In this document: positions 3,159 to 40,949 of the stretch, piece after piece
Layout: each line of letters opens with the position of its first letter
How positions within the stretch are numbered: position 1 is the first letter of the stretch
IMG/VR virus record: IMGVR_UViG_3300014208_000024
Location: 32,001 to 96,000 of that record
DNA length: 64,000 bases
Origin: a virus
Taxonomy: Duplodnaviria; Caudoviricetes
Strand: one strand, 5' to 3'
Translations under genes and position numbers: made by a program
The notes under the pieces: model-generated
The model's input: only the letters and a program-made list of their open reading frames with translations
The model's database searches: none
What the model was told of the DNA's origin: nothing

Positions 3159-3194
3159 AAAACAAAAAACCCAGACTCTTTCGAAATCTGGGTG
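3159..3194 (-). terminator. Attenuator terminator of Thr/His/Asn tRNA operon
   Basis: ACCCAGATT-TCGAAAG-AGTCTGGGT followed by TTTTTGTTTT. Confidence 0.85.
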
Positions 3195-3215
3195 CTTGTT
3201 TTTGTTTTATATGAT

Positions 3216-3305
3216 TTAACTCATAATAGACATATCACACCCAGATAAACATGTGGTATTATGTTTATGTGTATTCGTATTAATATGTATATTACTTGTT
3301 CTCAT
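3216..3305 (-). CDS. Leader peptide MRTSNIHINTNTHKHNTTCLSGCDMSIMS (Thr/His/Asn-rich)
   Basis: 29-aa ORF between promoter and terminator; 5 Thr, 4 Asn, 3 His; contains antiterminator TCTGGGTG. Confidence 0.8.
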   Translation of the reverse strand: MRTSNIHINTNTHKHNTTCLSGCDMSIMS

Positions 3306-3354
3306 TTCTTACTTTATTTTAAATAGTTAAAAAAATTGTTTATTTACCAATTTC

Positions 3355-3392
3355 TACGCAAATATATAAAAAAAGTTACATTAAAAGCAAGT
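3355..3392 (-). promoter_or_regulatory. Class I (probably early, host-RNAP) promoter TGTAAC-N-TAnnTTTGCGTA (representative of about 18 copies)
   Basis: Related motif near 5275, 7773, 10300, 10520, 19770, 23670, 25510, 27265, 27777, 30490, 32392, 33670, 38075, 40988, 42338, 45633, 48740; core resembles the Bacteroidota -7 element. Confidence 0.7.
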
Positions 3393-3443
3393 TTTTTTAT
3401 ATATTTTTTTAAATTATTTTTTTATTAATTGATTTCCAGTGTT

Positions 3444-4136
3444 TTATATTAAGCTCAAAATTGTCCTCTCAACAATTTTTTTCATATAATGCATATCTGT
3501 TTTATTTAAATTATAGTTTGGTGAAATAAAAGGAGCATGTGAATCCCATTTTCCACCCGTATTTCCATCTGTGGATTTTAATATTGTTTGTTTTCCCTCT
3601 CCCCTAAATGCTTTATAAGCGCCATCCTTTTCAGCTGATATTTCTAAAACAACATCTTCATAAAGCACTTCAACATCAACTCTTCCTGGTGCCCCAAACA
3701 TTATTTTATAATCTTCTGTGATTAAATCAAAAACTACAATTAAATTTCCTTTTTCATTAACACTTATATCTTTAATATTAATTGATTTTGGTTTTTCTTC
3801 AGCGCACATTTTACTTATAACCCACTTTATTTCTGAATCAATTTCTTTTTCTGTTTTTTCTGGGATCGGTATAATATTAAATGGATTTGTCAAAACTCTA
3901 TTTCCGCCTGTAAAAAGTAAATATTCTGCTCTTTCTGGAAACCATTTCAAAACTTTATGTTCGCCATATACTGGTTTAATATTATACACTGTTCTTCCAA
4001 CTAAATCTTCAAATTTTTCTATTCCCAATTTTTCTAATTGTTGTTCATATTCTTCTTTTGAGAAATCTCTAAAATTTGTAACATCAATTGTTGCAAGTTC
4101 TTGCAGTCTTTTTTTATATGATTCTGATAAATTCAT
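3444..4136 (-). CDS. Hypothetical protein with N-terminal LSESYKKRLQELA motif (probable virion protein)
   Basis: ORF; start moved to MNLSES; motif shared with 5308..5688. Confidence 0.7.
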   Translation of the reverse strand: MNLSESYKKRLQELATIDVTNFRDFSKEEYEQQLEKLGIEKFEDLVGRTVYNIKPVYGEHKVLKWFPERAEYLLFTGGNRVLTNPFNIIPIPEKTEKEIDSEIKWVISKMCAEEKPKSINIKDISVNEKGNLIVVFDLITEDYKIMFGAPGRVDVEVLYEDVVLEISAEKDGAYKAFRGEGKQTILKSTDGNTGGKWDSHAPFISPNYNLNKTDMHYMKKIVERTILSLI

Positions 4137-4137
4137 T

Positions 4138-4836
4138 TTAATAAGCGTAATTATATTTTGATTTTTTAGCTTTTTCCTTTCTCCATGTGTCATATTCTGA
4201 AGATGTGTTTTCGTCAAACCCAAAGTCAACCACAACAATTTTTGGAACTCCATCTCTTAAAACTTCTCCATAAGAAGATGTTCTTCCAAAATCTCCAGGA
4301 ACTGGATATTGATAATCGCTTATAAAATCTTGCATATCTATTGCAAATTCGTTTTCACTTAAGTCTGGAGCATTACTTCCCCAAAGTCTATCTCCACGCA
4401 TACTTGCCAACCACCTTACAAGATCTTCTGGAGTTGTTTTTGTTAATTCTTTAAATCTTCTTGGACTTACTTTCTTTGCAATTTCCATTTCTATCCACAT
4501 ATCATCTTGATCAACGTCAAACACTCTTGCTAAAACATCATAATTTTGTTTATATCCTTCTGATTCTGCACTATTTTGAGATATTCCCCTATCGTTTAAA
4601 GCAACCTTTAATACCTTCTCATCATCAATTTTGAACACTGCTCTAGATGAGCCAATTCCAACTTTTCCGAGCAAACGTTCTTTTGCATATTTTTGTTTTC
4701 CAGAAAAAGATCTTATATTTTTAAATTCATCGAAATTAAAGCTTGTTGGATAAGCCATTTCGTCAATGTGAAAATCTTTGTTTTCAGCAAACATTTCTTC
4801 AACACATTCTCTTATAATTTTTCTAACAAAATTCAT
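4138..4836 (-). CDS. Protein-kinase-like fold protein
   Basis: GIGSSRAVF Gly loop, VLKVA Lys, IVVVDFG. Confidence 0.65.
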   Translation of the reverse strand: MNFVRKIIRECVEEMFAENKDFHIDEMAYPTSFNFDEFKNIRSFSGKQKYAKERLLGKVGIGSSRAVFKIDDEKVLKVALNDRGISQNSAESEGYKQNYDVLARVFDVDQDDMWIEMEIAKKVSPRRFKELTKTTPEDLVRWLASMRGDRLWGSNAPDLSENEFAIDMQDFISDYQYPVPGDFGRTSSYGEVLRDGVPKIVVVDFGFDENTSSEYDTWRKEKAKKSKYNYAY

Positions 4837-4909
4837 TTAATAATTTTTATATAAATAGTTATAAAATGGAAAAACCCTCACGTTACTTATGCAAGGGTTT
4901 TTTAATATA

Positions 4910-5218
4910 AAGCAATTTTCTGGGAATTCTAGAGTGAGCGGTCACCTCGTATATCTCTGTTCAATTTCCATTATGGAACATCACCTAGTGAGGAACAAAG
5001 TTTAAGGCCAAATGTTTTAAGGTGTTCATTTTTCAACCCATAAACCTTAAGGGTTCATGTAATCTACTCTTTGCCTATCAATTCACCCAACACTTAAGTC
5101 GCAGCTTTAATATTGATTAACGTAAGGCTATGACATCTGAGCCGTTAGTCATTCTTTTTTTTAATGGTACTTAATCGTTGTCGAAGTATCTCAACATCTT
5201 TACCACAAAAAATTGCTT
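4910..5218 (-). ncRNA. Y-RNA-like element Y0 with about 250-nt non-tRNA cargo
   Basis: GTGGTAA...AGATACTTCG 5' arm, TTCCCAG 3' arm, terminal IR AAGCAATTTT; boxA upstream. Confidence 0.6.
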
Positions 5219-5307
5219 CAAAGAACTTATTAACTTATATAAATATAAAAAAAATTTTCATTTTCTATAAGCCTATACGAAAAATTATAAAAAAAGTTTC
5301 AAAAAAA

Positions 5308-5688
5308 TTATTTAAAATATCTAAATCCCTGAAACCCCTTCATAGGAATAGGTTCTATTTTGTGAAAAGGACCAGATCTCTCAATAAATTTTCCACTCCA
5401 ATTCTTTCCAGTGGTTGTACAATTAAAATTTTTTTCGGACATACCAACAATTTTCATCCAACCGATTATCGCTCCATTATATAATAAATAACATTTATTT
5501 CCAGGTTTAGTTTTAGGAAAGTTGTTTACTTTAAAATTCATTACCTGTTTATAATTTTCTACAGCCTTTAATTCCTTTTCATAATCTTTCCATTGAATTG
5601 ATTTTGGAATAGTGACAATAATATCCATTACATTGTCATTTATTCCAGCCAATTCTTGTAACCTGTTTTTATAATTTTCTGTTATCAT
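5308..5688 (-). CDS. Small beta-rich (ASCH/PUA-like) protein with virion-type N-terminal motif
   Basis: TENYKNRLQELAG start; KPGNKCYLLYNGAIIGWMKI. Confidence 0.5.
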   Translation of the reverse strand: MITENYKNRLQELAGINDNVMDIIVTIPKSIQWKDYEKELKAVENYKQVMNFKVNNFPKTKPGNKCYLLYNGAIIGWMKIVGMSEKNFNCTTTGKNWSGKFIERSGPFHKIEPIPMKGFQGFRYFK

Positions 5689-5693
5689 AAAAA

Positions 5694-5894
5694 CTAAGCT
5701 TTTTTATAATTATATTTTGATTTAATCATTGTATCAAAATAATTACCTGGAGAATCTGACTTTATTATTCCATTATATATTGTTTCTGGAACTGAAAAGT
5801 ATTTATATTTTCCGCCTTTAACAAAATCTATTGTTAAAATTTCGGTGGAGTTATTATATTCCACCGATCTTATTCTTGATGAATTTAACTGCAT
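5694..5894 (-). CDS. KTSC domain protein
   Basis: SSRIRSVEY...LTIDF..G.KYKYFSVP...Y....SDSPGNYF. Confidence 0.9.
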   Translation of the reverse strand: MQLNSSRIRSVEYNNSTEILTIDFVKGGKYKYFSVPETIYNGIIKSDSPGNYFDTMIKSKYNYKKA

Positions 5895-5983
5895 ATTCTT
5901 TTTATTTTAAATATACAACAATTTTAAAATAAATTCAATTGAATTATCTATAAAAAATTATTATATTTATTTAAAAAAGACAT

Positions 5984-6371: not shown

Positions 6372-7100
6372 ATGGAAACTAAAATATGCTCTAAATGCCA
6401 TGTTGAAAAACCTAATGATGAAGATTATTTTCCTAAAAGGAATAATAAGCTTGAATATAGATGTAAATCATGTCGTAAAGAATATTACGATATATGGAAA
6501 TTTAATAATGCAGAAGCTAAAAAACAATATGATAAAGATTATAGAGCTAAAAATTATGATAAACTTAAAAAATACACAAACGAATATAATGAAAATTTTC
6601 TATATAAGAACGGTGTAAAACGCCATACAAAATACTGGCAAAACAACAAAGAAAAAATAAAAACAAGAAGAGAGAAAAACAGAAATAATGAAAATATATT
6701 AAGGAACAAAAAAAGGAATGAGAGGCGAAAAGTTGACCCATTATTTAATCTACAAGAAAAAATAAGAACAAAACTTAACAAATTGTTTAAAAACAATGGA
6801 TATAAGAAAAACAAAAAAACAATTGATGTTATTGGATGTTCGTTTAAAAATCTAAAACTATATATAGAATCTAAATTTGAATCTTGGATGAATTGGGAAA
6901 ATCACGGATTATATAATGGACAGTTATATTATGGTTGGGACATAGACCATGTTATTCCATTGTGTACTGCTAAAACAGAAGAAGAATCTTTAAAATTATG
7001 GTATTATACAAATCTCCAACCTCTTTGCAGTAAAATAAATAGAGATATTAAAAAGGATAAAATTAATTTTAACTGTGCAGCAATTTTAAATTTCCCTTAA
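6372..7100 (+). CDS. HNH-like homing endonuclease
   Basis: CSKC...CKSC; WDIDHVIPL...YYTNLQPL. Confidence 0.8.
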   Translation: METKICSKCHVEKPNDEDYFPKRNNKLEYRCKSCRKEYYDIWKFNNAEAKKQYDKDYRAKNYDKLKKYTNEYNENFLYKNGVKRHTKYWQNNKEKIKTRREKNRNNENILRNKKRNERRKVDPLFNLQEKIRTKLNKLFKNNGYKKNKKTIDVIGCSFKNLKLYIESKFESWMNWENHGLYNGQLYYGWDIDHVIPLCTAKTEEESLKLWYYTNLQPLCSKINRDIKKDKINFNCAAILNFP

Positions 7101-7753
7101 ACACCTGTTTAAGGCTTGCTTTTTTCCCTGTTATATGGTCATGTACCAAATCGCTTTTAAAAGTATACATTCTTCTTTTATCTCCCCTAAATCCAGTTCC
7201 AATCTGTTCTTTTCTTTCTCTATGCTCTTTTTCTTTTTTATTAGAATCATATAGTTTTTGTACCCTTCTTGTCAATTCTTTTAGGGCAATTTCTTTGTTT
7301 TTTAGTTGACTTCTATCTTCATCACATCTTACTACCAGTCCAGTGGGAACATGCTTTAAATTCACACAAGAATAGGTGCGATTTCTTGCTTGTCCACCTG
7401 GACCTGTCCCATTTGTGATTTTAATTTCCACATCACTATCCTTTAGTTGGATTTTTACTTGTTGCCCAGGCTCCATTACAGCCACAGTGACTGAACTAGT
7501 GTGAACTCTGCCTTTTGATTCTGTTGGTGGAACACGACTAAACGTATGACCTCCAGCTTCATTTGAAAAGAATTTTTTTACGCCAGCACCGCTAAAGACA
7601 TAAAGAAATACATCCATCTTTCTCTTCTAAAGTAGAGATGGAAAAATTTTCAACCCTGGCCGCTTTTCTATAAACATCAGCCAAATCTTTTGCAAGAAGT
7701 TTTGAATCCATTCCTCCTTCTGCTGCACGAATTTCACAAATAATTGTTTCCAT
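7069..7753 (-). CDS. prfA: RF1-type peptide chain release factor (no domain 1), two ORFs joined by a +1 frameshift at CUU-UAG-C (7597..7591)
   Basis: EIRAAEGG (frame 0); VPPTES PxT motif and GPGGQ motif (frame +1). Confidence 0.85.
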
Positions 7754-9289: not shown

Positions 9290-9519
9290 AAAAATTATGT
9301 AGATTTGATCCTAACATAAATTTTCTAATCAGGTTGAATTAAAGAATGTAGAGTTTTTTGTTTTTTTAATCATAGGAATTTTTTTTCAAACAAATTTCTT
9401 AAGTGGATTTTTCCACCTTTGTCTTAAAAGACTCTTTAAAATAGATATAAATATCTTCCTACTATAATAAATAGTAAAAAAAAATCTCAACCCTTTCGAA
9501 TTGAGATTTTTATAAAACC

Positions 9520-10250
9520 CTGAGATTATAGGTTTAGTGAGTCAACTTTCGGGGGATTATTGGTTCCCCACCTTATCCACATACCTTGCGGCATGTACCA
9601 ACTCAATCTCGATTGGTTAGACCAATCACCTCTTTCGTCATAAACTACTCTACTGCTACTACCGCCATAACAAGAGTGCCCCCCTGCCATAACATTTCAC
9701 AATAATCCGTTAAACCTTGCGAGTCAAACGTCCCCAGTTCAACCGAAGTTGCCAGGATCTGAGAGACCTTTCGCCTATAACGCCAGCGGAACTTTTGCTT
9801 GCTTGAATTTTTTTCATAAAATTGAAGTTGTGCTTTTAATTGAAGATGTGCCGCTGGAACAGCTTCGTTCCTTTTGGGAACGAAATACTATACACCCTCT
9901 GCGCCCTTTTGCATCGGTACGCTCTCACCTTCGCCGCCCTGTAACTCTTACGAGAACGAGAACTCCAAAGATAAATGGAACACGCTCTAAAGCTTGCTAA
10001 ACCTTGAACATTATTCCTCGGCTTTTCCTATTGCCCCTTTCGGAGATCAACCGCCTCAAGCACTTCAGAGACGATATTTCACTCAGCAGTTGCCCTTGTG
10101 AAATGTACTAACCTATTGTATGCTCGACTTCTTTTCAAAAGCGACAAGATATTAACCTCGCCTTTATCCTGGTCACCCAGTTTATTTTCCTGACCCTTTC
10201 GGATCAGGCTTGACCACCAGTAGGTTGTCAACGACAGCACACTGCCATAA
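9520..10250 (-). ncRNA. Large structured ncRNA, GOLLD-like (about 730 nt)
   Basis: GC-rich non-coding island with many GNRA/UUCG hairpins, own promoter, boxA and terminator; size and tRNA-proximal phage context fit GOLLD. Confidence 0.6.
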
Positions 10251-10370
10251 ATTTTTTATCAATATTTTAAAGAACGTATCTTACTTAATTTTCTACTCTA
10301 TACGCAAAGATAAGAAAAAAGTTTCAAAAAAACAAGTTTTTTTTATTTTTTTTTTAAAAAACTTTTTTTA

Positions 10371-10454
10371 AGAGACGTAACCAGGCTGCTCAACCACTAC
10401 CCTTGCTTTCTTCCGAACCTGGGGGAGTTCGTAGGAGCCTGCCTGTTACGCTTT
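10371..10454 (-). ncRNA. ffs: Small SRP (4.5S) RNA
   Basis: Long hairpin with CAGGTTC-GGAA-GAAAGCA domain IV motif; boxA and promoter upstream. Confidence 0.85.
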
Positions 10455-13027: not shown

Positions 13028-13035
13028 TAACAGTG

Positions 13036-13112
13036 TAGCAACAGTGGGATTCGAACCCACAAAAATCCTCCGCCTTATGAGAGCGTTGCGCTACCAATTG
13101 CGCCATGTTGCC
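13036..13112 (-). tRNA. tRNA-Met or Ile2 (CAU)
   Basis: CGCT-CTCATAA-GGCG. Confidence 0.8.
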
Positions 13113-13120
13113 ATTAAAAT

Positions 13121-13329
13121 AATGATGTGTGAAAGCCTCCTACTTTCATAATCTCACTGACTTACACAGTTAGAGAGTCTCGGAATTTCACAACAAAGAC
13201 AATTACAATCAAACAAATGCTAATTCTTTACGAAATGAGCACCTTGCTTTAACCGTGTTGCCAAACACATCGCCTTTGTTGATCTACTGCTGAACTCTTA
13301 ATTACAGCTCTTATGCAAACACATCACTT
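13121..13329 (-). ncRNA. Rod-shaped ncRNA with central bubble, 6S-like candidate
   Basis: Closing helix GTGATGTGT/ACACATCAT, 13-bp CAACAAAGGCGAT/ATTGTCTTTGTTG, symmetric 11-nt bubble. Confidence 0.5.
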
Positions 13330-13408
13330 GCTTAAAAACAATTCATGCATTAATTGTTAGAAAGCGGGGGAAACACTCTCTCCTTTGCAAGTAAAGATTG
13401 TGAATCCT

Positions 13409-14311
13409 TTATCTTATAATATTTAATTCCTTTTCAGTCCATACCTCAAATGGTATGTTATTTTTTTTACAATATTTTTTAACAGCTTTAATTTTTTCTT
13501 TATTATTCCATCTATTTAACAATCTTTTTGGCTTAACTTCAACTATTTTTTTTAGTTCTTCTTTGTAAAAAATTTCAAAATCTATAATTGTACTTCTTTT
13601 TCCATTCCTATATTTTATATTGTATGGCTCGTAATTATAATAAAGAACATTATCATCTTTTTCTAATATTTCCATAGCTATTAACTCATAAGAACTTCTG
13701 TATTTTATTTCTTTTTTATTTTTATTACTATAATAAATTCCACCTTTATATTTTTTATGTGATGGAGAAATCCCAAACATTCCATTGCTTTTTCCGCTAT
13801 TTTTTCCTTTTATAGAATTTGATATTTTCTTTTTCACATCCTCGCTTTGTGATGCACATTTTTTAGAACAATAAATGTTTTCATGCTTATTAACTTCTTT
13901 TCCACAAAATTTACATCTTGGTTTTTCTTTTATATTTTTTTTCTTACCTGCTTCAATACGCTCTATTAAAAATCCAAACGCACCATTTTCTCTAATGCGT
14001 TTTTTTATAGAATCTCCTATGTTTTTTTTCGTTTTTTCTGATTGAATTCTTTTGTTTGCACAACTTCTAGAACAAAACATAGAATATTTTTTTTTCTCAA
14101 AATCTGTTTTTTTTAAAATAATCTCATATTTTTTTCCACATCTCAAACATCCAAACTCATACTCTAATCTTTCTATTTTTCTACTATTAGATGCTTTTTG
14201 TATCATGTTTTTTTTGTTTGGGTTTTTTTTACAATTAATTATATGACCACCAAGTTGTTGTTGCTTGTCATATTTTATTAATTGTCCACAATATTTACAT
14301 TTTTTTTCCAT
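13409..14311 (-). CDS. Homing endonuclease, Zn-ribbons plus TnsA-like PD-(D/E)XK domain
   Basis: YRSSYE...YEPYNIKY...IDF...IVEVKP. Confidence 0.8.
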   Translation of the reverse strand: MEKKCKYCGQLIKYDKQQQLGGHIINCKKNPNKKNMIQKASNSRKIERLEYEFGCLRCGKKYEIILKKTDFEKKKYSMFCSRSCANKRIQSEKTKKNIGDSIKKRIRENGAFGFLIERIEAGKKKNIKEKPRCKFCGKEVNKHENIYCSKKCASQSEDVKKKISNSIKGKNSGKSNGMFGISPSHKKYKGGIYYSNKNKKEIKYRSSYELIAMEILEKDDNVLYYNYEPYNIKYRNGKRSTIIDFEIFYKEELKKIVEVKPKRLLNRWNNKEKIKAVKKYCKKNNIPFEVWTEKELNIIR

Positions 14312-14365
14312 TTTTTTGTATTTATTTTACTATAAATATCAGCAAAAAATAAAAATTGAACTCTG

Positions 14366-14437
14366 AGCGGTATACTGGATTTAAACCAGCGACCTTCACA
14401 TTGGCAATGTGACATTCTATCACTGAACTAATACCGC
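14366..14437 (-). tRNA. tRNA-Gly(GCC)
   Basis: TCACA-TTGCCAA-TGTGA. Confidence 0.9.
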
Positions 14438-14440
14438 ATA

Positions 14441-14607
14441 AAATTAGGGAAATTTCGAACTAAGCATTTTTCTTTTTCTGCCCCATTTAACCACTCTGGA
14501 ACCCCCCCGAATTACTCCTTATTTGTCGAGGGGGATGGATTCGAACCACCGAAGGCTTACGCCAGCAGATTCCTTATCGAAGTAACTTAATTTGTTACCA
14601 CTAATTT
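14441..14607 (-). ncRNA. Y-RNA-like element Y4 (permuted tRNA-Tyr-type body, no anticodon loop)
   Basis: Family stem; long variable arm, T-arm, acceptor, D-arm CAGAGTGGTTAAA. Confidence 0.75.
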
Positions 14608-15387
14608 ATATTTTTTATTCCAATTTTCTATTTTGTTTTTTAAATCATCTAATGAAATAGAACATTTTTTATTTTTACTTGAATTATTTGAATGAACCAT
14701 TAATTTGCAATTTGCTGGATGAGAAATAATATTTGAATCAATTTTTTGTTTAAAACCTTCCGAAATTGAAAACATGTGATCTCTACTAATTCCATTTAAG
14801 TTATTCCCTTTATTCTTTGCACAATACCATCCAAATTTTTTAATCAACTCAAAGTCAAATTCTTCTACGAAATCTTTTAGATTAAAATTAAATCGACACT
14901 CTGATTTATATATATTAAATTCAGTCATCTTTTTTTTATCAAAAATTTTTCTACAATTTATCCCACAAAATTTATTTTTTCTTTTTTTAAATGGCAAAAT
15001 AGCATTACACTCTAAACAAAAATTTGGATTTTCATAATATTTGTCAATACCATTTTTTTTAATATTAGCATTTTTAATGTTTTCTTTTGCTTTGTCACTA
15101 AAAACAACTTTTCTGCCAGTATTTTTCTTATTGTTAAATGATGTAGAACAACTTAAAGAACAAAAAGTATTAAACCTTTTTTCGTATGAAATTAAATTAC
15201 CACAATGTTTACATTTTTTAATATCAATTTTAGGTTTATGAAATTCATTATAACAAGTTAAGGAACAAAAATGTTTTCTTCCCATTTTTTCACTTCTTTT
15301 AAATTCTGTTTTTGTTTTTTCAAACTCATTTTTACAATTTTCGCAAATTATTAAAATTGTTTTTCTATTATTCTTAAAAATTTTCAT
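14587..15387 (-). CDS. Zn-ribbon HNH-like homing endonuclease
   Basis: CxxC repeats; ISRDHMFSI...HPANCKL. Confidence 0.75.
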   Translation of the reverse strand: MKIFKNNRKTILIICENCKNEFEKTKTEFKRSEKMGRKHFCSLTCYNEFHKPKIDIKKCKHCGNLISYEKRFNTFCSLSCSTSFNNKKNTGRKVVFSDKAKENIKNANIKKNGIDKYYENPNFCLECNAILPFKKRKNKFCGINCRKIFDKKKMTEFNIYKSECRFNFNLKDFVEEFDFELIKKFGWYCAKNKGNNLNGISRDHMFSISEGFKQKIDSNIISHPANCKLMVHSNNSSKNKKCSISLDDLKNKIENWNKKYKLVVTN

Positions 15388-15459
15388 ACTTTTATTTTTC
15401 TTATAAATATTAAAAAAAAATAAAAGTGGAGTTTTTTTGAGTCGAACTTGTATGCTTAG

Positions 15460-15533
15460 TGGAAGTGAAGGGTTTCGAACCCTCATACCTTATGCTTGCA
15501 AAGCATCTGCTCAGCCAATTGAGCTACACCCCC
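15460..15533 (-). tRNA. tRNA-Ala(UGC)
   Basis: TTTGCAA loop, G3:U70. Confidence 0.9.
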
Positions 15534-15615
15534 AGATTTCCTATTAACTCTTCCATTCACCCTAAAGTGGGTGGGTTTACAGAACTTCGGAAAGACTTTC
15601 GTCTTGTTCAATTAG

Positions 15616-15689
<74 letters not shown>

Positions 15690-15780
15690 AAATGATAGTC
15701 TTTCCCATCTGTCACCCTTAGATGTGATTATTAAAAATAATCAGTGTATTGCGGGTTGTCTACACCATCCTTTTTCAAAA

Positions 15781-15927
15781 AACAGGGAAAATTTATAAGA
15801 GTTTGTTTTACGTGCTCTAACCGACTGAGCTATCCCGCCATTTTCCTTTTATTTGTGGCGGGAGCAGGATTCGAACCTACGGCGACGGCATTATGATTGC
15901 GAAGTAACTCTCATTGTTGCCACTGTT
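15781..15927 (-). ncRNA. Y-RNA-like element Y5 (permuted tRNA, Met CAU loop)
   Basis: Family stem; GCA-ATCATAA-TGC. Confidence 0.75.
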
Positions 15928-15945
15928 TTATCTTAAATATGTTAA

Positions 15946-16098
15946 AAATTAGGGAATTCTTCGCAGAATCTGTTTTTAAGCGCTCTAACCAACTGAGCTA
16001 TCCCCGCATTATTTTTTATTTAGAGCGGGGAACAGGATTCGAACCTATGGCCTCTGTCTTGGAAGGACGATGAAATTCTACATTTTGCCACTAATTTT
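15946..16098 (-). ncRNA. Y-RNA-like element Y6 (permuted tRNA, Gly UCC loop)
   Basis: AGTGGCAA/TTCCCT stem; GTC-CTTCCAA-GAC. Confidence 0.72.
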
Positions 16099-16102
16099 AT
16101 TG

Positions 16103-16177
16103 TCGGGGTAACTGGATTTGAACCAGCGAACACTTGCATCCCATGCAAGCCCATATAGCCATCTGTGGAACACCCCG
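16103..16177 (-). tRNA. tRNA-Pro(GGG)
   Basis: CTTGC-ATGGGAT-GCAAG. Confidence 0.85.
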
Positions 16178-16245
16178 TAAGGTGCGGAATTTAAAGTCGT
16201 GGAGTCACAATGCTCAACGGCACAAACCTTCCGCTGTTTGTTTTG

Positions 16246-16320
16246 TCTGGGTAAAGGGATTCGAACCCCCGAACACGTGCTTCCAAAGCACGCCCGTATA
16301 GCCATCTGCGGAACACCCAG
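16246..16320 (-). tRNA. tRNA-Pro(UGG)
   Basis: CGTGC-TTTGGAA-GCACG. Confidence 0.85.
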
Positions 16321-16426
16321 AAATAAAAGAGAGAACATCTTATGAGATGCTGTCCTAACCATCACCGTTCACGTTTCAGGTCAGTAACTCAAGTCTTGTG
16401 AACCTCCCAAGACCCTTTTCTTTTTG

Positions 16427-16501
16427 TCGGGTAAGCAGGATTCGAACCTGCGAACATCTGTCTCCGAAACAGACCCATATAGCCATCTGTGGAACTACCC
16501 G
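16427..16501 (-). tRNA. tRNA-Pro(CGG)
   Basis: TCTGT-TTCGGAG-ACAGA. Confidence 0.85.
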
Positions 16502-16521
16502 AATTTTAATTTCATTTTCAC

Positions 16522-16610
16522 TGGTAGCGGGTGAGGGACTCGAACCCCCGCTTCCCTTTTGGAGAAGTCCAGCTTATGAGACTGGCAAGATACCACTTCT
16601 CTAACCCGCA
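16522..16610 (-). tRNA. tRNA-Met(CAU) with long variable arm
   Basis: CCAGT-CTCATAA-GCTGG; CTTCTC/GGGAAG arm; 1:72 mismatch; CCA. Confidence 0.8.
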
Positions 16611-16617
16611 ATATTTG

Positions 16618-16699
16618 TCGAAAGGGAGGGAGTTGAACCCCCATAGCCGAAGGCGACGGTTTTACAGACCGCTGATTTAGCCGATTTACCATCCTTTCG
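16618..16699 (-). tRNA. tRNA-Tyr(GUA)
   Basis: CGGT-CTGTAAA-ACCG, class II arm. Confidence 0.85.
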
Positions 16700-16817
16700 A
16701 AAACTTTGGCTCATGGGTCAGTTACTATCCCATTTTTATTTAACGCTATTCCAAGGCGACTAACTTGTGTCCAACAACGCATCCACTATGCAGCCAAAGG
16801 GAGATTTTTAAAATTTG

Positions 16818-16902
16818 TGAGAGTAGAAGGATTCGAACCTCCAACGCCCCGAAGGGCAACAGGGTTACAGCCTGTCAGACATCCTGGTTGTCTAATACTC
16901 CC
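16818..16902 (-). tRNA. tRNA-Tyr(GUA)
   Basis: ACAGG-CTGTAAC-CCTGT, class II arm. Confidence 0.85.
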
Positions 16903-16906
16903 ATTT

Positions 16907-17058
16907 AAATCAGGGTAAAAGCGAATAAGCTTTTTTGTTTTTGAATTTTTCCCCATAGTTTAAAATTTAATTGGTGGGGAAAGCAGGATTCGAACCTACA
17001 ATGTTTAGTTTTACAGACTATTTTCTTCCGAAGTAACTCATTCTGTTGCCACTGATTT
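16907..17058 (-). ncRNA. Y-RNA-like element Y7 (Tyr GUA loop, T-arm, acceptor with ACCA, no D-arm)
   Basis: Family stem; TAGT-CTGTAAA-ACTA. Confidence 0.7.
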
Positions 17059-17059
17059 G

Positions 17060-17131
17060 TGGAGGATAACGATACCGATTCGTTGGTCTGTTGCTTGCAA
17101 AACAACCGCTTTACCATTAAGCTAAGCCCCC
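17060..17131 (-). tRNA. tRNA-Ala(UGC), atypical T-loop
   Basis: GTTGT-TTTGCAA-GCAAC; G3:U70; T-loop ATCGGTA. Confidence 0.7.
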
Positions 17132-17811
17132 AATTTATAATAAGAGAAAATGTGATTTTTATGAGATTTATTAACACCTCTACAAACCTTAGAAACACAA
17201 TTCCAATCAAACCCATCTTCTATAACTTGCCTTCCAAAATTATAAATTTTTATCAAATTATTTTCTAAATTATAACAAAAAACTTTTTTACAATTCTTAC
17301 TATTTATTCCACTATTTTTTTCTTTTGTTTTTTCACTCCATTTTAATCCAACTCTTTTAGCAGACATTTTTTCTTTACTTTCTTTAGAATGATTTTTTCC
17401 ATAAAATCCATTTTTATCTCCAAGACAACTTGTTTTTCTTGTTTTTGACATCTTTATTTTTGATTCTTCCGAGTGTTTGAAAATTCCTTTTTTACCTTTG
17501 TTCCAAGGAACAACACTGAATGAACCATCTCCACCATTTGTCATATTTGTAAGCTCAAACCCCCAAGTTTTAATTTGAGAAATCCAATATTTTTCCCAAA
17601 AATCACAACTTAACTCATCAGTTTCTTCTATGATAAAAAGTTCTGGTAACAATCCATTTTTTTTTAATTTTTTAACCCAAGCAGTTTTTTTTGTATTTTT
17701 ACTTTCATTTAAATGGTCTCTAAATCTTCTTTCTACCCTATATGTTTTTCCAACATATTTTATACTTTTATTTCTTGGGTCAGAAAGTAAATAAATATAA
17801 ACTTTTTTCAT
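17122..17811 (-). CDS. GIY-YIG homing endonuclease with NUMOD3/NUMOD1 motifs
   Basis: YIYLL...KYVGKT...R; GFYGKNHSKESKEKMS. Confidence 0.9.
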   Translation of the reverse strand: MKKVYIYLLSDPRNKSIKYVGKTYRVERRFRDHLNESKNTKKTAWVKKLKKNGLLPELFIIEETDELSCDFWEKYWISQIKTWGFELTNMTNGGDGSFSVVPWNKGKKGIFKHSEESKIKMSKTRKTSCLGDKNGFYGKNHSKESKEKMSAKRVGLKWSEKTKEKNSGINSKNCKKVFCYNLENNLIKIYNFGRQVIEDGFDWNCVSKVCRGVNKSHKNHIFSYYKLGA

Positions 17812-17846
17812 ACTTTTTTATTATAAATATAATAAAAAAAAATGAA

Positions 17847-18206
17847 TTATGGATTAATTAATGGATTTATTTTTTGTTTTGTTAATTTATATACCCTATT
17901 ATTAAAATCTTCTAATAAAGATTTGGGTATTTTTATTTTTTTATCTTCAAATTGTTTAAGTATTTCATACTTAGAAAAACACCCTTCAACAATACCCTCT
18001 GACCACATATTAATATGCAACCCCCAAGATTTTTTTCCCATAATTACAGTTTTCAAAATGTTTGGGTGACAACTTTTAAGATTATTAATTTTTATTTCAC
18101 CATTTTCAAATTTTCTGAATCCAAATTTTCCATCATCAGAATCCAGATCAAATTCCACTTTAACATCTGAACCGCAGAAAGTAAGTATTCCACATCTATA
18201 AGACAT
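17847..18206 (-). CDS. Hypothetical protein
   Basis: ORF. Confidence 0.6.
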   Translation of the reverse strand: MSYRCGILTFCGSDVKVEFDLDSDDGKFGFRKFENGEIKINNLKSCHPNILKTVIMGKKSWGLHINMWSEGIVEGCFSKYEILKQFEDKKIKIPKSLLEDFNNRVYKLTKQKINPLINP

Positions 18207-18435
18207 TAAAAAAAACGTGAAGATTTCGTTAAACTTTTCAGAATACTTTTGTAATCTTTTATGATTTCTTGTACCAGAGATTTGTTTTTTTTCTTCAATT
18301 TTTCTTAACCTCTCTTTAATTGATTCGCTTTTCGCATGGCTGTTCCCTCCAAAGTTTTAATTATTAATATGATAAAGTTGATTTTGCTCAATATCATTGT
18401 TAGCTTTATCGTTCAAAAACTATGATATTATATTG

Positions 18436-18509
18436 TAAATCAGGGAATAGTTACCGAGGGAGTTTTTTGATTTGCAGTCGAAGTATCCCTACTGATTGCC
18501 ACTGACTTT
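18436..18509 (-). ncRNA. Minimal Y-RNA-like element Y8 (Cys GCA loop only)
   Basis: Family stem closing GA-CTGCAAA-TC. Confidence 0.65.
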
Positions 18510-18510
18510 G

Positions 18511-18583
18511 AGCGGGTAAAGAGGTTCAAACTCTCGACTTTCAGATTGGAAATCTGACGCTCTATCAGCTGAGCTATACCCGC
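18511..18583 (-). tRNA. tRNA-Gly(UCC)
   Basis: TCAGA-TTTCCAA-TCTGA. Confidence 0.9.
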
Positions 18584-18688
18584 ATTATTTTAGTTTATAA
18601 AAAATAATATAATTTAAATTTTTTTTCACAATTTGTTAAAGAAAATAGATTTTCTAAAATTTTGTGATATTTATATGAAAAATATTAT

Positions 18689-19369
18689 ATGACACCACTT
18701 TATACACAAGAAGAATTTGACAACGCTAAAGGTTGCGACAAATTGCCATGTAAATGTAAATATTGTAAAGAAACATTCTTTAGATATAAGTATATAATTA
18801 AAGCAGCATTAAACCCAAAAAACAAGCAAACTAATGATTATTGTTCAAGAAATTGTCAATATCAATCTCAGTTTAAGCATGAAACTATAAGATGTGACAA
18901 TTGCAATATTGAAATTAAAAAATTAATTTCTACTACAAAAAGACATAAAAATCATTTTTGTTCGCACTCATGTTCTACTAAATATTTTAACGCTCACAAA
19001 ACAACTGGAATTAGACGATCTAAATTAGAAATATGGCTTGAATCACAACTCACTTTTCTTTATCCAAGTCTTGAAATTCATTATAATAAAAAGGATGCCA
19101 TTGGATCAGAATTAGATATATATGTACCCTCTTTAAAAATTGCATTCGAATTAAATGGAATATTCCATTATGAGCCAATTTATGGTAATAATAAATTAGA
19201 TCAAATAAAAAATAATGATTCAAGAAAATATAAATCTTGTATTGATTTAAACATATCTTTGTGTATAATAGATTCATCTCAATTAAAATATTTTAAAGAG
19301 AAAAATTGTAAAAAATATTTAGATATTATTATTAATATTATAAACAACACAATGAATACTGGACAATAA
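18689..19369 (+). CDS. Zn-ribbon plus PD-(D/E)XK endonuclease (paralog of 39934..40587)
   Basis: RSKLEIW...ELDIYVP...FELNGIFHY. Confidence 0.8.
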   Translation: MTPLYTQEEFDNAKGCDKLPCKCKYCKETFFRYKYIIKAALNPKNKQTNDYCSRNCQYQSQFKHETIRCDNCNIEIKKLISTTKRHKNHFCSHSCSTKYFNAHKTTGIRRSKLEIWLESQLTFLYPSLEIHYNKKDAIGSELDIYVPSLKIAFELNGIFHYEPIYGNNKLDQIKNNDSRKYKSCIDLNISLCIIDSSQLKYFKEKNCKKYLDIIINIINNTMNTGQ

Positions 19370-19426
19370 TAACCAGCATTCATTATGTGTTTTAAATTCA
19401 CCAACATGTCAAAGACCATTATACTG

Positions 19427-19498
19427 CGGAATGTGTGGGATTCGAACCCCTCCTTCGCCGTGACGGGGCGATACTACTACCATTATACGACACACTCC
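19427..19498 (-). tRNA. tRNA-Asp(GUC)
   Basis: TCGCC-CCGTCAC-GGCGA. Confidence 0.85.
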
Positions 19499-19527
19499 AA
19501 TTTTCATTTATTTATAAAGAACGTATT

Positions 19528-19569
19528 AAAACAAAAAACCCGAATCTTTTTTTGGGATTCGGGTTGTTT
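19528..19569 (-). terminator. Attenuator terminator of Asp/Gly/Ala/Tyr/Met/Pro operon
   Basis: ACCCGAATC...GATTCGGGT followed by TTTTTGTTTT. Confidence 0.85.
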
Positions 19570-19599: not shown

Positions 19600-19713
19600 T
19601 TAAGGTTTTGAGTTAAACATACCCGTCCCACATCCATAATCAGCATCCGCTGCACATGGATAACCGCCCATTGGGGAAGTTTCTGGTTGACGATATGTAA
19701 AATTTTGTTTCAC
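19600..19713 (-). CDS. Leader peptide (M)KQNFTYRQPETSPMGGYPCAADADYGCGTGMFNSKP
   Basis: 37-aa GTG-start ORF (internal ATG possible); 16 consecutive codons from P,M,G,Y,C,A,D; antiterminator GGGACGGGTATGTTT. Confidence 0.78.
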   Translation of the reverse strand: MKQNFTYRQPETSPMGGYPCAADADYGCGTGMFNSKP

Positions 19714-19862
19714 CTTTATTATGTTTTTATATTATTAAATATCTCAAAAAAAATTGTTTTCACAGATTCATACGCAAAGTTACAAAAAAAGTTACATAAA
19801 AAACAAGTTTTTTTCAAAGTTTTTTTAAAATATTTTACAACTTGTTGATTATTAAACTATTA

Positions 19863-38057: not shown

Positions 38058-38184
38058 ATATTTTTTTTATTTATTATACGTATTAAAAAATAAAAAGTTA
38101 AAAAATTATAATTAAATTGAAAATCAAACAATTATAATGTTGGCATGTTTATTGAAAGATTAATGTAAACTTAAAAATAAAAAT

Positions 38185-38976
38185 ATGAAAACACTATTAT
38201 TTACAATCAGTTTCATCTTGTTTTCTTTAATTTCATTCTCTCAAGATGATATTTATTATTCTCCAAGTCACGACACTGTTACACAGGAAGGAAATACGTA
38301 TATAACCAATAATTATTACTCAGACGAATATGAGTTTGATGATTATTTTTACACAAAAAGACTTTATAGATTTCACAGCAATAGTACATATGGATATTAC
38401 TCCAATTACTATTCTGATTGTTTATTTTTATTTTCTATTGGAGGAGTAGATTTGTATTTGACAAATTATTATTATCCATATTATTACTATAATTATTCCC
38501 CATATTACTACGGATATTATGATCATTCATATTATAACTGGGGACATTCATATTATAACTGGGGACATTCATATAATCACAATAATCATGGATGGAACCA
38601 TAATAATTGGGAAAATCATCATGGAAATGGACATCATAGTTCAAATAATAAACCTACTTATTATGGACATAGAGAAAGTATATCACAAAAAACCACAAAC
38701 AATTCTAGACCATCTTATGTTAAACCGTCTGTTAATTCTAAACCAGAATATAACAAACCAAATACATTTGAATATACAAGGCCACAAAAATATCAAAAAC
38801 CAGTTTTTAATGATTCTAAACCAAATTATTCAAAACCGCAAGTTTATTTTAACAAACCAATAAACACAAAACCAAATAATTATTCGAAACCAAGTAATTA
38901 CTCTAGACCATCTATAAATGTAAGACAGAGTGGGGGAACAATTTCAAAACCATCAAACTCATTTAAGAGAAAATAA
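38185..38976 (+). CDS. Secreted Tyr/His/Asn-rich low-complexity protein (Bacteroidota type)
   Basis: Signal peptide, DDIYYSP, YNWGHS and KPxY repeats. Confidence 0.65.
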   Translation: MKTLLFTISFILFSLISFSQDDIYYSPSHDTVTQEGNTYITNNYYSDEYEFDDYFYTKRLYRFHSNSTYGYYSNYYSDCLFLFSIGGVDLYLTNYYYPYYYYNYSPYYYGYYDHSYYNWGHSYYNWGHSYNHNNHGWNHNNWENHHGNGHHSSNNKPTYYGHRESISQKTTNNSRPSYVKPSVNSKPEYNKPNTFEYTRPQKYQKPVFNDSKPNYSKPQVYFNKPINTKPNNYSKPSNYSRPSINVRQSGGTISKPSNSFKRK

Positions 38977-39001
38977 AAAAAGGGGGGCTTATTCCTCCTT
39001 T

Positions 39002-39076
39002 TGGTACCCCCACCGTGACTCGAACACGAAATTAAAGTTTAGGAAACTTTCGGTATATCCCTTTACCTATGGGGGC
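39002..39076 (-). tRNA. tRNA-Arg(CCU)
   Basis: AAAGT-TTCCTAA-ACTTT; CCA. Confidence 0.85.
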
Positions 39077-39080
39077 ATGA

Positions 39081-39263
39081 TTATTTAATTAATCCAAGTT
39101 TTAATTTTAACCTGGCCTTACTAAGCTTTTCAACAGTTTTATTATATTCTTCTTCTGAAACATTATCTTTAAAGTTTTTGCTCTTAATACGTTTCTCTAA
39201 AAAAGAAATATAATCATTATGCTGAGCTATTGCTGATTTTTTATTTTCTTGTTTGTTTTTCAT
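39081..39263 (-). CDS. Small basic hypothetical protein
   Basis: ORF from MKNKQ. Confidence 0.55.
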   Translation of the reverse strand: MKNKQENKKSAIAQHNDYISFLEKRIKSKNFKDNVSEEEYNKTVEKLSKARLKLKLGLIK

Positions 39264-39275
39264 ATAATAATTTTG

Positions 39276-39349
39276 CAGGCACGGAGGGACTCGAACCCCC
39301 AAATCTTCGCTTTTGGAGAGCGTTATTCTACCAATTGAACTACGCACCT
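39276..39349 (-). tRNA. tRNA-Trp(CCA)
   Basis: CGCT-CTCCAAA-AGCG. Confidence 0.9.
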
Positions 39350-39358
39350 GTATGTTTG

Positions 39359-39430
39359 CGCCAGTGAAGCGACTCGAACACTTAAATCACGGGTTTGGAA
39401 TCCGCTTACCTCTCTCTTGTGGGCACTGAC
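39359..39430 (-). tRNA. tRNA-Trp(CCA), divergent
   Basis: TTCCAAA loop; weak D-arm. Confidence 0.65.
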
Positions 39431-39441
39431 ATTTATTTTTG

Positions 39442-39515
39442 TATCTCAGGAGGGACTCGAACCCCCAACTTTCAGCTTAGAAGGCTGAATTTCTGGTCCA
39501 TTGAATTACTGAGAC
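39442..39515 (-). tRNA. tRNA-Arg(UCU)
   Basis: TCAGC-CTTCTAA-GCTGA. Confidence 0.88.
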
Positions 39516-39521
39516 ATTTTG

Positions 39522-39593
39522 TCTCCCCAGAAGGACTCGAACCTTCACTCGTCAGTTTAGAAAACTGATGCTTATCCATTAAGCTATGGGGAG
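39522..39593 (-). tRNA. tRNA-Arg(UCU)
   Basis: TCAGT-TTTCTAA-ACTGA. Confidence 0.88.
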
Positions 39594-39596
39594 AAA

Positions 39597-39684
39597 TGGC
39601 GGAGAATAAGGGATTCGAACCCCTGGCACCTTTCGGTGCACATGCTTTCCAAGCATGCACCTTAAACCACTCGGTCAACTCTCC
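39597..39684 (-). tRNA. tRNA-Ser(GGA)
   Basis: CATGC-TTGGAAA-GCATG, class II arm. Confidence 0.92.
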
Positions 39685-39689
39685 AAAAC

Positions 39690-39766
39690 AGGACTGCATA
39701 TCTCCAACATCATGCTCCTACTGGTAACTATTTCCAGCGACGAGATTTGAACTCGTTTACATCCTT
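39690..39766 (-). ncRNA. Circularly permuted tRNA-like core without Y stem
   Basis: AGGA/TCCT closing; T-arm ACGAG-TTCAAAT-CTCGT first, then CTGG/CCAG, then D-like arm. Confidence 0.5.
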
Positions 39767-39852
39767 GGCGGAGAGTGCGAGTACCGACCTCGCTTGGCCT
39801 TAAGCCATCCTAAGTTTAGCAAACTTGACTCTTACCTTTCGAGCAACTCTCC
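39766..39852 (-). tRNA. tRNA-Ser(GCU)
   Basis: AAGT-TTGCTAA-ACTT, class II arm, atypical T-loop. Confidence 0.8.
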
Positions 39853-39933
39853 ATTACGTAAAGAATAAATTGTGAAAACTGTTTTTTGTTTTTATTATTT
39901 CCGCATATTTATTATTATATCATTAAATATTTT

Positions 39934-40587
39934 ATGATTCCTTTATATACTCAAGAAGAATTTATTTTAGCAAAATCATCTGATAAATTACCATTACAGT
40001 GTGAACATTGTGGAAAAACTTTTTACACACAAAAAAGAATAATAAAAGACAAAAGGGGTGTTAAAAAGTTTTGTTCTTTTTCTTGTCTTGGAAAATCTAC
40101 ATTACAAAAAACCACAATTAATTGTAAACTATGTAATAAAGAATTTTTAATAAAAAAGTCACAACTAAAAAAAGGAAAAAATCATTTTTGCAGCATTTCA
40201 TGTAATGCACAATATAACAACTCACACAAAACTCACGGTACTAATCGTTCTAAATTAGAAATATGGATTGAAAAAAAACTTTCTGAATTATACCCAAATC
40301 TAAAAATTTTATACAATGATACCACAGCAATAAATTCTGAGCTAGACATTTATATTCCAAAAATAAAATTGGCATTTGAATTAAATGGAATTTTTCATTT
40401 TGAACCCATTTTTGGAAATGAAAAATTAGAAAAATCGAAAAACAATGACAACAAAAAGTTTCAAAAATGTATAAAAAGCAAAATTTCATTATGTATCATA
40501 GACACATCTACTCAAAAATATTTCAAAGAAAACTCTTCTAAAAAATACCTTGATATAATAACAAACATCATTTCAAAGAACATTTAA
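39934..40587 (+). CDS. Zn-ribbon plus PD-(D/E)XK endonuclease
   Basis: Paralog of 18689..19369. Confidence 0.8.
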   Translation: MIPLYTQEEFILAKSSDKLPLQCEHCGKTFYTQKRIIKDKRGVKKFCSFSCLGKSTLQKTTINCKLCNKEFLIKKSQLKKGKNHFCSISCNAQYNNSHKTHGTNRSKLEIWIEKKLSELYPNLKILYNDTTAINSELDIYIPKIKLAFELNGIFHFEPIFGNEKLEKSKNNDNKKFQKCIKSKISLCIIDTSTQKYFKENSSKKYLDIITNIISKNI

Positions 40588-40611
40588 TTGTGTGTAACTC
40601 ATACACTCAAG

Positions 40612-40694
40612 AGGAAGGTAAACGAATCGAACGCTCATCCCGAAGGATGGCCCAGGGTTCAAGCCTGGTTACTCACCACTGAGTGCTACCTTCC
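40612..40694 (-). tRNA. tRNA-Ser(UGA)
   Basis: CCAGG-CTTGAAC-CCTGG. Confidence 0.82.
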
Positions 40695-40713
40695 ATTATT
40701 TTAAAGAACATTT

Positions 40714-40803
40714 TGGCGGAGAAGAAGGGATTCGAACCCCTGGAGCCCTCACGGGCTCAACGGTTTTCAAGACCGCCGCATTCAACCACTCTGCCACTTC
40801 TCC
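40714..40803 (-). tRNA. tRNA-Ser(UGA)
   Basis: CGGT-CTTGAAA-ACCG; CCA. Confidence 0.92.
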
Positions 40804-40839
40804 AAAAAAAACCCCCGATTCATTTCTGACCGAGGGTTT
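40804..40839 (-). terminator. Attenuator terminator of Ser/Arg/Trp tRNA operon
   Basis: CCCTCGGT...ATCGGGGG followed by T8. Confidence 0.85.
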
Positions 40840-40862
40840 CTCTAAAAATATTTTTAACAAAT

Positions 40863-40949
40863 TTAGATAATATGCGGCCAGGAACAAGTAAATCTACTTG
40901 AGCTTCTTCTCCTGGATGACCAATTCATATTTTCAACTTTGTTTTTCAT
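40863..40949 (-). CDS. Leader peptide MKNKVENMNWSSRRRSSSRFTCSWPHII
   Basis: 28-aa ORF with 6 Ser, 4 Arg (AGA/AGG only), 2 Trp; antiterminator CTGGCCG. Confidence 0.85.
   Translation of the reverse strand: MKNKVENMNWSSRRRSSSRFTCSWPHII

Follow-up and report, generated by a model that had tools for sequence, protein, structure and literature searches.

Candidate leader-peptide attenuators ahead of the tRNA gene blocks of a large groundwater phage

The locus reported here raises the question of how a phage controls the transcription of its own transfer RNA (tRNA) genes, since tRNA genes are, as far as we know, treated as constitutive or growth-rate controlled. It belongs to the IMG/VR virus record IMGVR_UViG_3300014208_000024 (Duplodnaviria; Caudoviricetes), which is 372,283 bases in length and comes from groundwater metagenomes. 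Bases 32001-96000 of this record, a stretch of 64,000 nucleotides (nt) with a guanine plus cytosine (G+C) content of about 29%, are referred to as the window. ARAGORN revealed 46 tRNA genes in the whole genome and 30 in the window, all 30 of them on the minus strand. The genome contains six tRNA gene blocks, each preceded by a short open reading frame (ORF), named the leader ORF, and by a predicted terminator; three of these modules (L1-L3) are within the window and three (L4-L6) outside it. Judging from the sequence, we consider it likely that each block is gated by a ribosome-mediated (leader-peptide) attenuator which senses the supply of the cognate tRNAs.

Leader ORFs and the tRNA genes behind them

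A preliminary description of the window had noticed the succession of promoter, short ORF, terminator and tRNA genes at three operons, and this layout is present in all three. Along the minus strand of L1-L3, a promoter block is followed by an A/U-rich 5' leader, the short ORF, a G+C-rich hairpin with a T-run, mostly a box GTTCTTTAAAATA, and finally the tRNA genes. The promoter block is conserved and common to the six modules (CTTG, about 21 nt, then TAnnTTTG), a spacing that is the Bacteroidota −33/−7 promoter pattern. The six leader ORFs comprise 25-37 codons (28-37 in L1-L3), have start and stop codons and lie between the promoter and the tRNA genes, while the GC-rich stem and T-run found 3' of each of them are predicted, at the sequence level, to be intrinsic terminators. 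The modules outside the window served as a prediction test, the DNA upstream of three further blocks (Gln/Phe/Arg/Val, Leu/Cys and Lys) being read before any statistics were made, and the same promoter block, short ORF and terminator appeared in all of them.

The composition of each leader follows the tRNAs located behind it. Cognate residues account for 12 of 28 in L1 (Thr, His and Asn, with Asn, His and Thr tRNAs downstream), 19 of 36 in L2 (Asp, Gly, Tyr, Met, Pro and Ala, with the matching tRNAs downstream) and 12 of 27 in L3 (Ser, Arg and Trp, likewise with Ser, Arg and Trp tRNAs). In the densest stretch of 12 residues of each leader, 9 to 12 are cognate. The earlier proposal that the three leaders of the window are packed with the amino acids of the downstream tRNAs was thus borne out, save for Cys in the second operon, for which no tRNA was found. 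The candidate considered there, an extra Rfam tRNA, was rejected as a Cys tRNA; it has the anticodon UGC and the pair G3:U70, and is an Ala tRNA.

The Ile codons of L6 also seemed unmatched at first. An additional tRNA that Rfam placed immediately behind the Lys genes could then be read as an atypical Ile tRNA with the anticodon GAU, and an Ile UAU tRNA was recognized by eye directly downstream of it. At the same place a related phage (relative A, described below) has canonical Ile GAU, GAU and UAU genes. The Ile codons of L6 are therefore accounted for, and the cognate residues of this leader amount to 11 of 24. The interval from the L6 terminator to the Lys tRNAs contains a second mini-ORF of 10-12 codons, rich in Lys and Arg, with a hairpin but no T-run behind it; relative A also has this mini-ORF, with a different sequence (L090, about 2192-2160, minus strand).

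The specificity of this match was assessed by comparing each leader with each operon, defined as all tRNAs up to the next leader, and counting those residues for whose amino acid the operon provides a tRNA. This matrix was strongly diagonal, with own-operon values of 15, 10, 5, 12, 19 and 12 (the 5 is the value of L6 before its Ile tRNAs were counted) and with all off-diagonal values between 1 and 6. The true pairing of leaders and operons was the single best of the 720 permutations, with 73 cognate residues against a mean of 27, and it was again the best of 720 when codons were scored with simple wobble rules (69 vs. 24) and when anticodon coverage was considered, 31 of the 32 anticodon species of the six operons having a cognate codon in their own leader. 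This is the permutation of leaders against operons that the preliminary description had suggested as a check.

The agreement extends to the choice of codons. The Thr codons ACA, ACG and ACC stand ahead of tRNAs UGU, CGU and GGU, and the Leu codons TTA, TTG, CTC and CTA ahead of tRNAs UAA, CAA, AAG and UAG. In the case of Arg, AGG and AGA are used in the leader before Arg CCU/UCU and CGC and CGT in that before Arg ACG. Such spelling at the level of isoacceptors favours tRNA supply over amino-acid supply as the signal that would be sensed.

We find it scarcely credible that the short ORFs arose by chance or encode small functional proteins unrelated to tRNAs. It is true that this AT-rich DNA is rich in short ORFs, with 961 of 24-40 codons in the genome, and that no leader has a database annotation. 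Nevertheless, with Ile included in L6, the enrichment of each leader over the phage proteome gave binomial p values from 3e-3 to 1e-5 for the six leaders and from 3e-4 to 1e-5 for L1-L3, and the comparison with those 961 ORFs gave empirical p values of ≤0.01 and ≤0.002, respectively, so that the combined enrichment is far beyond background. Chance is further opposed by the specific complementarity of each leader to its own terminator, and a protein function by the free variation of the peptides between relatives outside the runs of control codons, both reported below.

Cognate triplets are concentrated in the frame of the ORFs, where they account for 76 of 170, whereas the two alternative frames have 20 of 164 and 27 of 164. 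This frame specificity argues for reading by a ribosome and not for frame-free contacts between RNAs. It bears on a second explanation, in which sensing would be independent of the ribosome and the leader triplets would pair directly with the anticodons of free tRNAs to decide termination, as in T-boxes. The leaders do hold many triplets complementary to the anticodons of their cargo, and T-box leaders are established to sense tRNAs and to choose between terminator and antiterminator. However, the enrichment is restricted to the frame defined by start and stop; start, frame and stop are kept in the relatives, with GTG replaced by ATG at the same site; at Rfam thresholds, the window yielded neither a T-box nor any other riboswitch family; and T-boxes use one specifier, not 10-19. 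Direct pairing with tRNAs is, in consequence, very improbable in our opinion.

In addition, one unit of the window, holding an amber-suppressor tRNA (CUA), is located directly behind the same promoter type without leader ORF and without terminator. Since no sense codon could report the supply of this tRNA, its lack of a leader is as expected if the ORFs report the reading of sense codons.

Pairing with the terminators and the proposed switch

When the leaders were folded up to the terminator loop, the terminator 5' arm paired with part of the final third of the ORF. Duplex energies were calculated for every ORF against every terminator 5' arm, and the diagonal values ranged from −11.8 to −19.3 kcal/mol, the own pairing being once more the best of 720. 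On shuffling the codons within each ORF, five of the six leader-terminator duplexes were significant (p 0.001-0.005). The complementarity that had been described for the three operons of the window therefore holds for L1 (over 9 nt) and for L2, and is weak in L3, where it covers 7 nt.

The effect of a translating ribosome was modelled by keeping a block of 28 bases unpaired, moved codon by codon along the leader, and computing for each position how likely the ORF is to hold the terminator arm; in L3 this was scored on the strand that actually pairs. With the ribosome on the control codons, the predicted antiterminator probability was 0.8-1.0 in four of the six leaders, and in L5 it started at 0.73. 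Past the end of the control run it fell, in the model, to 0.02-0.5 in five of the six leaders and only to about 0.6-0.7 in L3. The switch point thus coincides with the end of the control run, which means that the last control codon sits where a stalled ribosome just frees the antiterminator strand. In classical attenuators the last control codon is likewise placed so that the stalled ribosome leaves the antiterminator strand free. It was also considered whether every leader has a strong 1:2 anti-antiterminator, and this was rejected because equilibrium folding gave no support for it; the L3 of relative A does show one, and a candidate hairpin of this kind in the L3 of the window is given in Table 1.

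On this basis we infer translation, termination, the direction of the switch and its physiological trigger. Transcription would begin at the shared phage promoter, and a ribosome would start on the 25-37-codon leader. When charged tRNAs for the control codons are scarce, the same tRNA species being encoded just downstream, the ribosome would stall on those codons, the next RNA segment would be free to pair with the terminator 5' arm as an antiterminator, and RNA polymerase would enter the tRNA genes. When the control codons are read fast, the ribosome would cover the antiterminator strand, the terminator hairpin would form and transcription would stop. The quantity sensed would be the charged cognate tRNA supplied to the A site, and the outcome a negative feedback holding each phage tRNA set at the decoding need, resolved to the isoacceptor. 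The natural trigger may be low phage tRNA early in infection, a mismatch of codon usage with the host, or host tRNA cleavage or starvation, among which the sequence cannot tell.

Behind the terminators, the box GTTCTTTAAAATA is over-represented, with 47 matches against 18.7 expected, and is kept in the relatives. It recurs between tRNAs and ahead of a GOLLD RNA, and its position before this RNA as well as before tRNAs ties it to stable-RNA units. A shared promoter of the same type was also observed just upstream of the GOLLD RNA, together with the box. The preliminary description had called the element boxA; the box itself is real, and the name rests on resemblance, both to bacterial boxA sequences and in its place where stable-RNA units begin (tRNA blocks and GOLLD RNA). 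A search of the literature on the boxA consensus yielded nothing usable. The boxA of ribosomal RNA operons is bound by NusB/NusE and makes RNA polymerase resistant to termination. The phage box is found also between tRNAs, and because of this recurrence a role in processing is equally possible.

The leaders in related phages and the weighing of the evidence

Searches with the terminator-plus-box pattern in viral contigs, and with the L1 region by BLAST against deposited phages, gave no match, and no related loci were found via two proteins of the window. The AAA protein encoded 1.2 kilobases (kb) upstream of L2 has many homologs and gave three relatives (A, B and C); a metagenome scan with the AAA alignment was dominated by the Walker-A pattern and revealed one true ortholog only.

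Relative A is a 228,886-base IMG/VR contig whose AAA protein is 78% identical; the contig was walked stepwise and its tRNA regions were fetched. It has orthologs of all six leaders, L3 included, with nearly invariant control runs, while N-terminal and other codons vary freely and the frame is preserved (3-nt indel). The L1 ortholog retains the core IHINT..KHN.TC.SGC.MSI. The residue, codon and duplex matrices of relative A each gave the true pairing as the best of 720. In L6, both the leader segment and the terminator arm differ between the two phages, with their complementarity retained. Relative B is a 540-kb groundwater contig with an L2 ortholog that has ATG at the GTG site of this phage and several synonymous changes; the stretch examined (L094) ends before the next leader of that phage. 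Leader start, frame and stop are conserved in the relatives.

The third relative, C, is more distant (AAA protein 46% identical) and is known from contigs of 141 kb and 447 kb. Its two leaders, as well as their terminators, are unrelated in sequence to those of this phage. The first, with many Pro, Met, Ala and Asp residues, stands ahead of Pro, Asp, Ala, Ala, Tyr and Tyr tRNAs; behind the second, whose core is W SSS R W SS R, are Ser, Ser, Arg, Trp, Arg and Arg tRNAs. Cognate residues were 11 for the own cargo vs. 5 for the other in one leader, and 11 vs. 3 in the other one. With the terminators, the own duplexes reached −20.3 vs. −7.8 and −18.1 vs. −12.0 kcal/mol, with exact complementarity over 8-10 nt. 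A design conserved without conservation of sequence is the strongest comparative support obtained. The comparison of leader composition with tRNA isotypes across related phages, which had also been proposed beforehand, thus found the match kept in relatives A and C.

These data must be confronted with a further possibility, namely that the leaders are translated and the hairpins terminate without acting as a sensor of supply, translation serving to protect the nascent stable RNA (for instance from Rho) or to fix the fraction of read-through, and the codon match being a by-product. Most untranslated leaders are already predicted to be antiterminated, and the boxA-like box that follows the terminator points to anti-termination as a general arrangement for stable RNAs. 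But this explanation offers no reason for leader composition to track the cargo in six of six operons at the level of isoacceptors, nor for the same tracking in a distant relative with unrelated sequences, and it leaves unexplained that the end of the control run coincides exactly with the point from which a ribosome would mask the antiterminator. We regard it as improbable, although less so than direct pairing with tRNAs.

Several observations weigh against an attenuator that senses tRNA supply. The antiterminator of L3 is weak (p 0.14), and the L3 of relative A uses a different terminator segment. Equilibrium folding predicts the antiterminator also for most untranslated leaders, and because of this the default state is not settled by computation. 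In the case of L1 and L5, the antiterminator strand is uncovered again once the ribosome has reached the stop codon, so termination there would need kinetic coupling. For the two Cys codons of L2 there is no matching tRNA, and neither is conserved in relatives A and B alike, the first being replaced by Ser in relative A and the second by Tyr in relative B. One Leu tRNA pair of relative C is without a detectable leader. Outside the control runs, non-synonymous changes exceed synonymous ones, which fits a leader and gives no classical coding-gene signature. Amino-acid starvation would trigger read-through too, though extra tRNA would then be of no help. Finally, the read runs containing this phage stretch are DNA runs of groundwater metagenomes only, with no RNA run among them. 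Set against these points, the predictions that a ribosome-mediated attenuator makes at the sequence level (leader-cargo match, frame, complementarity to the own terminator, fold switch, relatives and three extra operons) all agreed with what was found, and this reading is supported.

Adjacent features, known systems and meaning

The positions of the modules and of the features around them are provided in Table 1.

Table 1. Positions of the leader modules and adjacent features (window positions unless marked as genome positions)
Feature	Position	Strand	Description
L1 promoter	3359..3391	minus	CTTG, about 21 nt, TATATTTG; Bacteroidetes −33/−7 type; block aligns with relative A
L1 leader ORF	3216..3305	minus	29 codons; codons 3-18 nearly all Thr (ACA, ACG, ACC), His (CAT), Asn (AAT)
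L1 putative antiterminator 5' strand ATCTGGGTG	3238..3246	minus	Complementary to terminator 5' arm 3186-3194; duplex −17.2 kcal/mol, shuffle p 0.003
L1 predicted intrinsic terminator	3159..3194	minus	10-base-pair GC-rich stem, then TTTTTTGTTTT
L1 boxA-like box GTTCTTTAAAATATTG	3138..3153	minus	3' of L1 terminator
L1 cargo	1139..3126	minus	tRNA Asn x2, His x2, Thr UGU/CGU/GGU, UUA suppressor, permuted His- and Asn-type cassettes, one HTH-protein gene
L2 promoter	19775..19807	minus	Same promoter type
L2 leader ORF	19600..19713	minus	37 codons, GTG start; rich in Pro, Met, Gly, Tyr, Ala, Asp
L2 putative antiterminator 5' strand	19615..19631	minus	Pairs with 19553-19569; −18.1 kcal/mol, p 0.001
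L2 predicted intrinsic terminator	19528..19569	minus	Stem and T-run
L2 box and cargo	13035..19522	minus	Box 19509-19522; tRNA Asp, Gly UCC, Tyr x2, Met, Pro x4, Ala, Gly GCC, Met, Ala at 17060-17131
L3 promoter −7 box TATATTTG	40993..41002	minus	Bacteroidetes type
L3 leader ORF	40863..40949	minus	28 codons; core W SS RRR SSS R; Arg only AGG/AGA, matching Arg CCU/UCU tRNAs
L3 hairpin, candidate anti-antiterminator	40878..40915	minus	5' strand bears control codons; 3' end overlaps antiterminator strand 40875-40881
L3 predicted intrinsic terminator	40804..40839	minus	Stem and T-run
L3 cargo	39002..40803	minus	tRNA Ser UGA x2, Ser GGA, Arg UCU x2, Trp, Arg CCU
L4 leader ORF	genome 4098-4193		Rich in Gln, Phe, Val, Arg; before Gln/Phe/Arg/Val block
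L5 leader ORF	genome 24225-24305		Rich in Leu, Cys; before Leu/Cys block
L6 leader ORF	genome 31657-31734		Rich in Lys, Ile; before Lys/Ile block
L6 second mini-ORF	genome 31526-31564	minus	10-12 codons
Atypical Ile tRNAs GAU, UAU	genome 31005-31168	minus	No normal D arm; missed by ARAGORN; just left of window
Amber-suppressor tRNA (CUA) unit	42251..42365	minus	tRNA 42251-42324; directly behind same promoter type; no leader ORF, no terminator
Second CUA suppressor tRNA	43335-43409	minus	Reads TAG
UUA suppressor tRNA	1634-1706	minus	Reads TAA; in L1 operon
GOLLD RNA	9517-9900	minus	Full length, 226.6 bits
Box GTTCTTTAAAATA before GOLLD RNA	10263-10275		Just upstream, with shared promoter type
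Small SRP RNA	10370-10453	minus	42.3 bits
Permuted tRNA-like cassettes	3126-2950, 2807-2662, about 17040-16940, about 16090-16020	minus	Start GTGGCAA...AGAGTTAC(T/A)TCG
Split tRNA gene	15856-16007	minus	Insert of about 80 nt; Rfam tRNA, 31.2 bits
Release-factor-1-like gene	7069-7617	minus	RF-1 and PCRF domains
Ro60-type protein gene	51255-52760	minus	TROVE domain, E 1.6e-19
Genes within tRNA operons	17122-17811, 13409-14311, 2017-2586	minus	GIY-YIG/NUMOD3, TnsA-like endonuclease, HTH proteins

Several other RNAs were observed around the operons. The GOLLD RNA and a small signal recognition particle (SRP) RNA are both located between tRNA operons. Four cassettes consist of a tRNA 3' half (anticodon arm, T arm and acceptor 3' strand), a spacer and a 5' half, and look like circularly permuted tRNA genes; read by eye, they are of His, Asn, Tyr and Gly type, the isotypes of their operon neighbours, those of Tyr and Gly type being part of the L2 cargo, with homing-endonuclease-like genes between. 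One tRNA gene is split by an insert which itself holds a GTGGCAA...AGAGTTACTTCG motif. The window also encodes three suppressor tRNAs. As its standard-code ORF map looks intact, any recoding would be partial or late.

With regard to proteins, the release-factor-1-like gene is called as two ORFs (PCRF, then RF-1) in relatives (L089, 4267-4948; L094, 14430-15114), and this call in both relatives fits a conserved frameshift. The gene of a Ro60-type protein has a syntenic TROVE counterpart on the contig to which L001 belongs; this protein is of interest beside the many tRNA-like RNAs. The protein genes within the tRNA operons are probably mobile homing-endonuclease insertions rather than cargo.

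An Rfam scan of the whole window at gathering scores found only tRNA, GOLLD and SRP RNA, with no leader family (Thr, His, Trp, Leu, Leu/Phe or Bacteroid-trp) and no T-box; the same scan of the 32 kb upstream of the window gave only tRNA. In the literature, no description was found of leader peptides or attenuators before tRNA genes, either phage or cellular, in a search that left old subscription papers mostly uncovered, so that an early report is possible. The mechanism proposed would be that of the trp, his, thr and ilv leaders, and tRNA genes as its cargo would be an apparently new use, of which we found no published description.

The enterobacterial leaders (thrL for Thr and Ile, ilvL for Ile, Leu and Val, as well as trpL, hisL, leuL and pheL) have the layout in common with the phage modules: promoter, control-codon ORF, alternative antiterminator and terminator hairpins, and regulated genes. 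Closest in logic are thrL and ilvL, in which one leader senses several amino acids, as in the phage. The phage modules differ from these leaders in that their cargo is tRNA genes and not biosynthetic enzymes, so that the product would feed straight back on the signal; their control codons cover each isoacceptor of the cargo, and six units run in parallel in one phage. They also have a Bacteroidetes-type promoter, no Shine-Dalgarno sequence and no sequence relation to the Rfam leader families. In kind of cargo, the closest system is the pheM leader attenuator of the pheST (phenylalanyl-tRNA synthetase) operon of E. coli, in which charged tRNA is sensed by way of a leader peptide and the gene under control belongs to the translation apparatus; yet it is cellular, it concerns one amino acid and a protein cargo, and the tRNA itself is not its product. 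T-box riboswitches also sense the status of tRNA and choose between antiterminator and terminator ahead of genes for aminoacylation and amino-acid supply. They bind the tRNA directly through one specifier codon and without an ORF, while the phage signal is frame-specific and has no T-box match.

If the attenuator reading is true, a ribosome on a test ORF that measures the tRNA product codon by codon would be a new regulatory logic for tRNA genes, and it would account for the way in which large phages with 40-60 tRNA genes escape the waste or harm of over-expressing them. The leaders would be natural reporters of decoding speed for defined sets of codons, useful as sensors, and the grouping of tRNAs by leader also explains the amino-acid ordering of phage tRNA arrays. 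There would be, moreover, a direct and testable link between phage tRNA genes and host defences that deplete or cleave tRNAs. In this regard, it is possible, although we hold it as a tentative and rather doubtful extension, that the six attenuators form an isoacceptor-resolved network which detects missing host tRNAs (through codon-usage mismatch, host shut-off or anticodon nucleases) and resupplies exactly those on demand, and that they may represent an undescribed, widespread autogenous control of tRNAs in phages that doubles as counter-defence.

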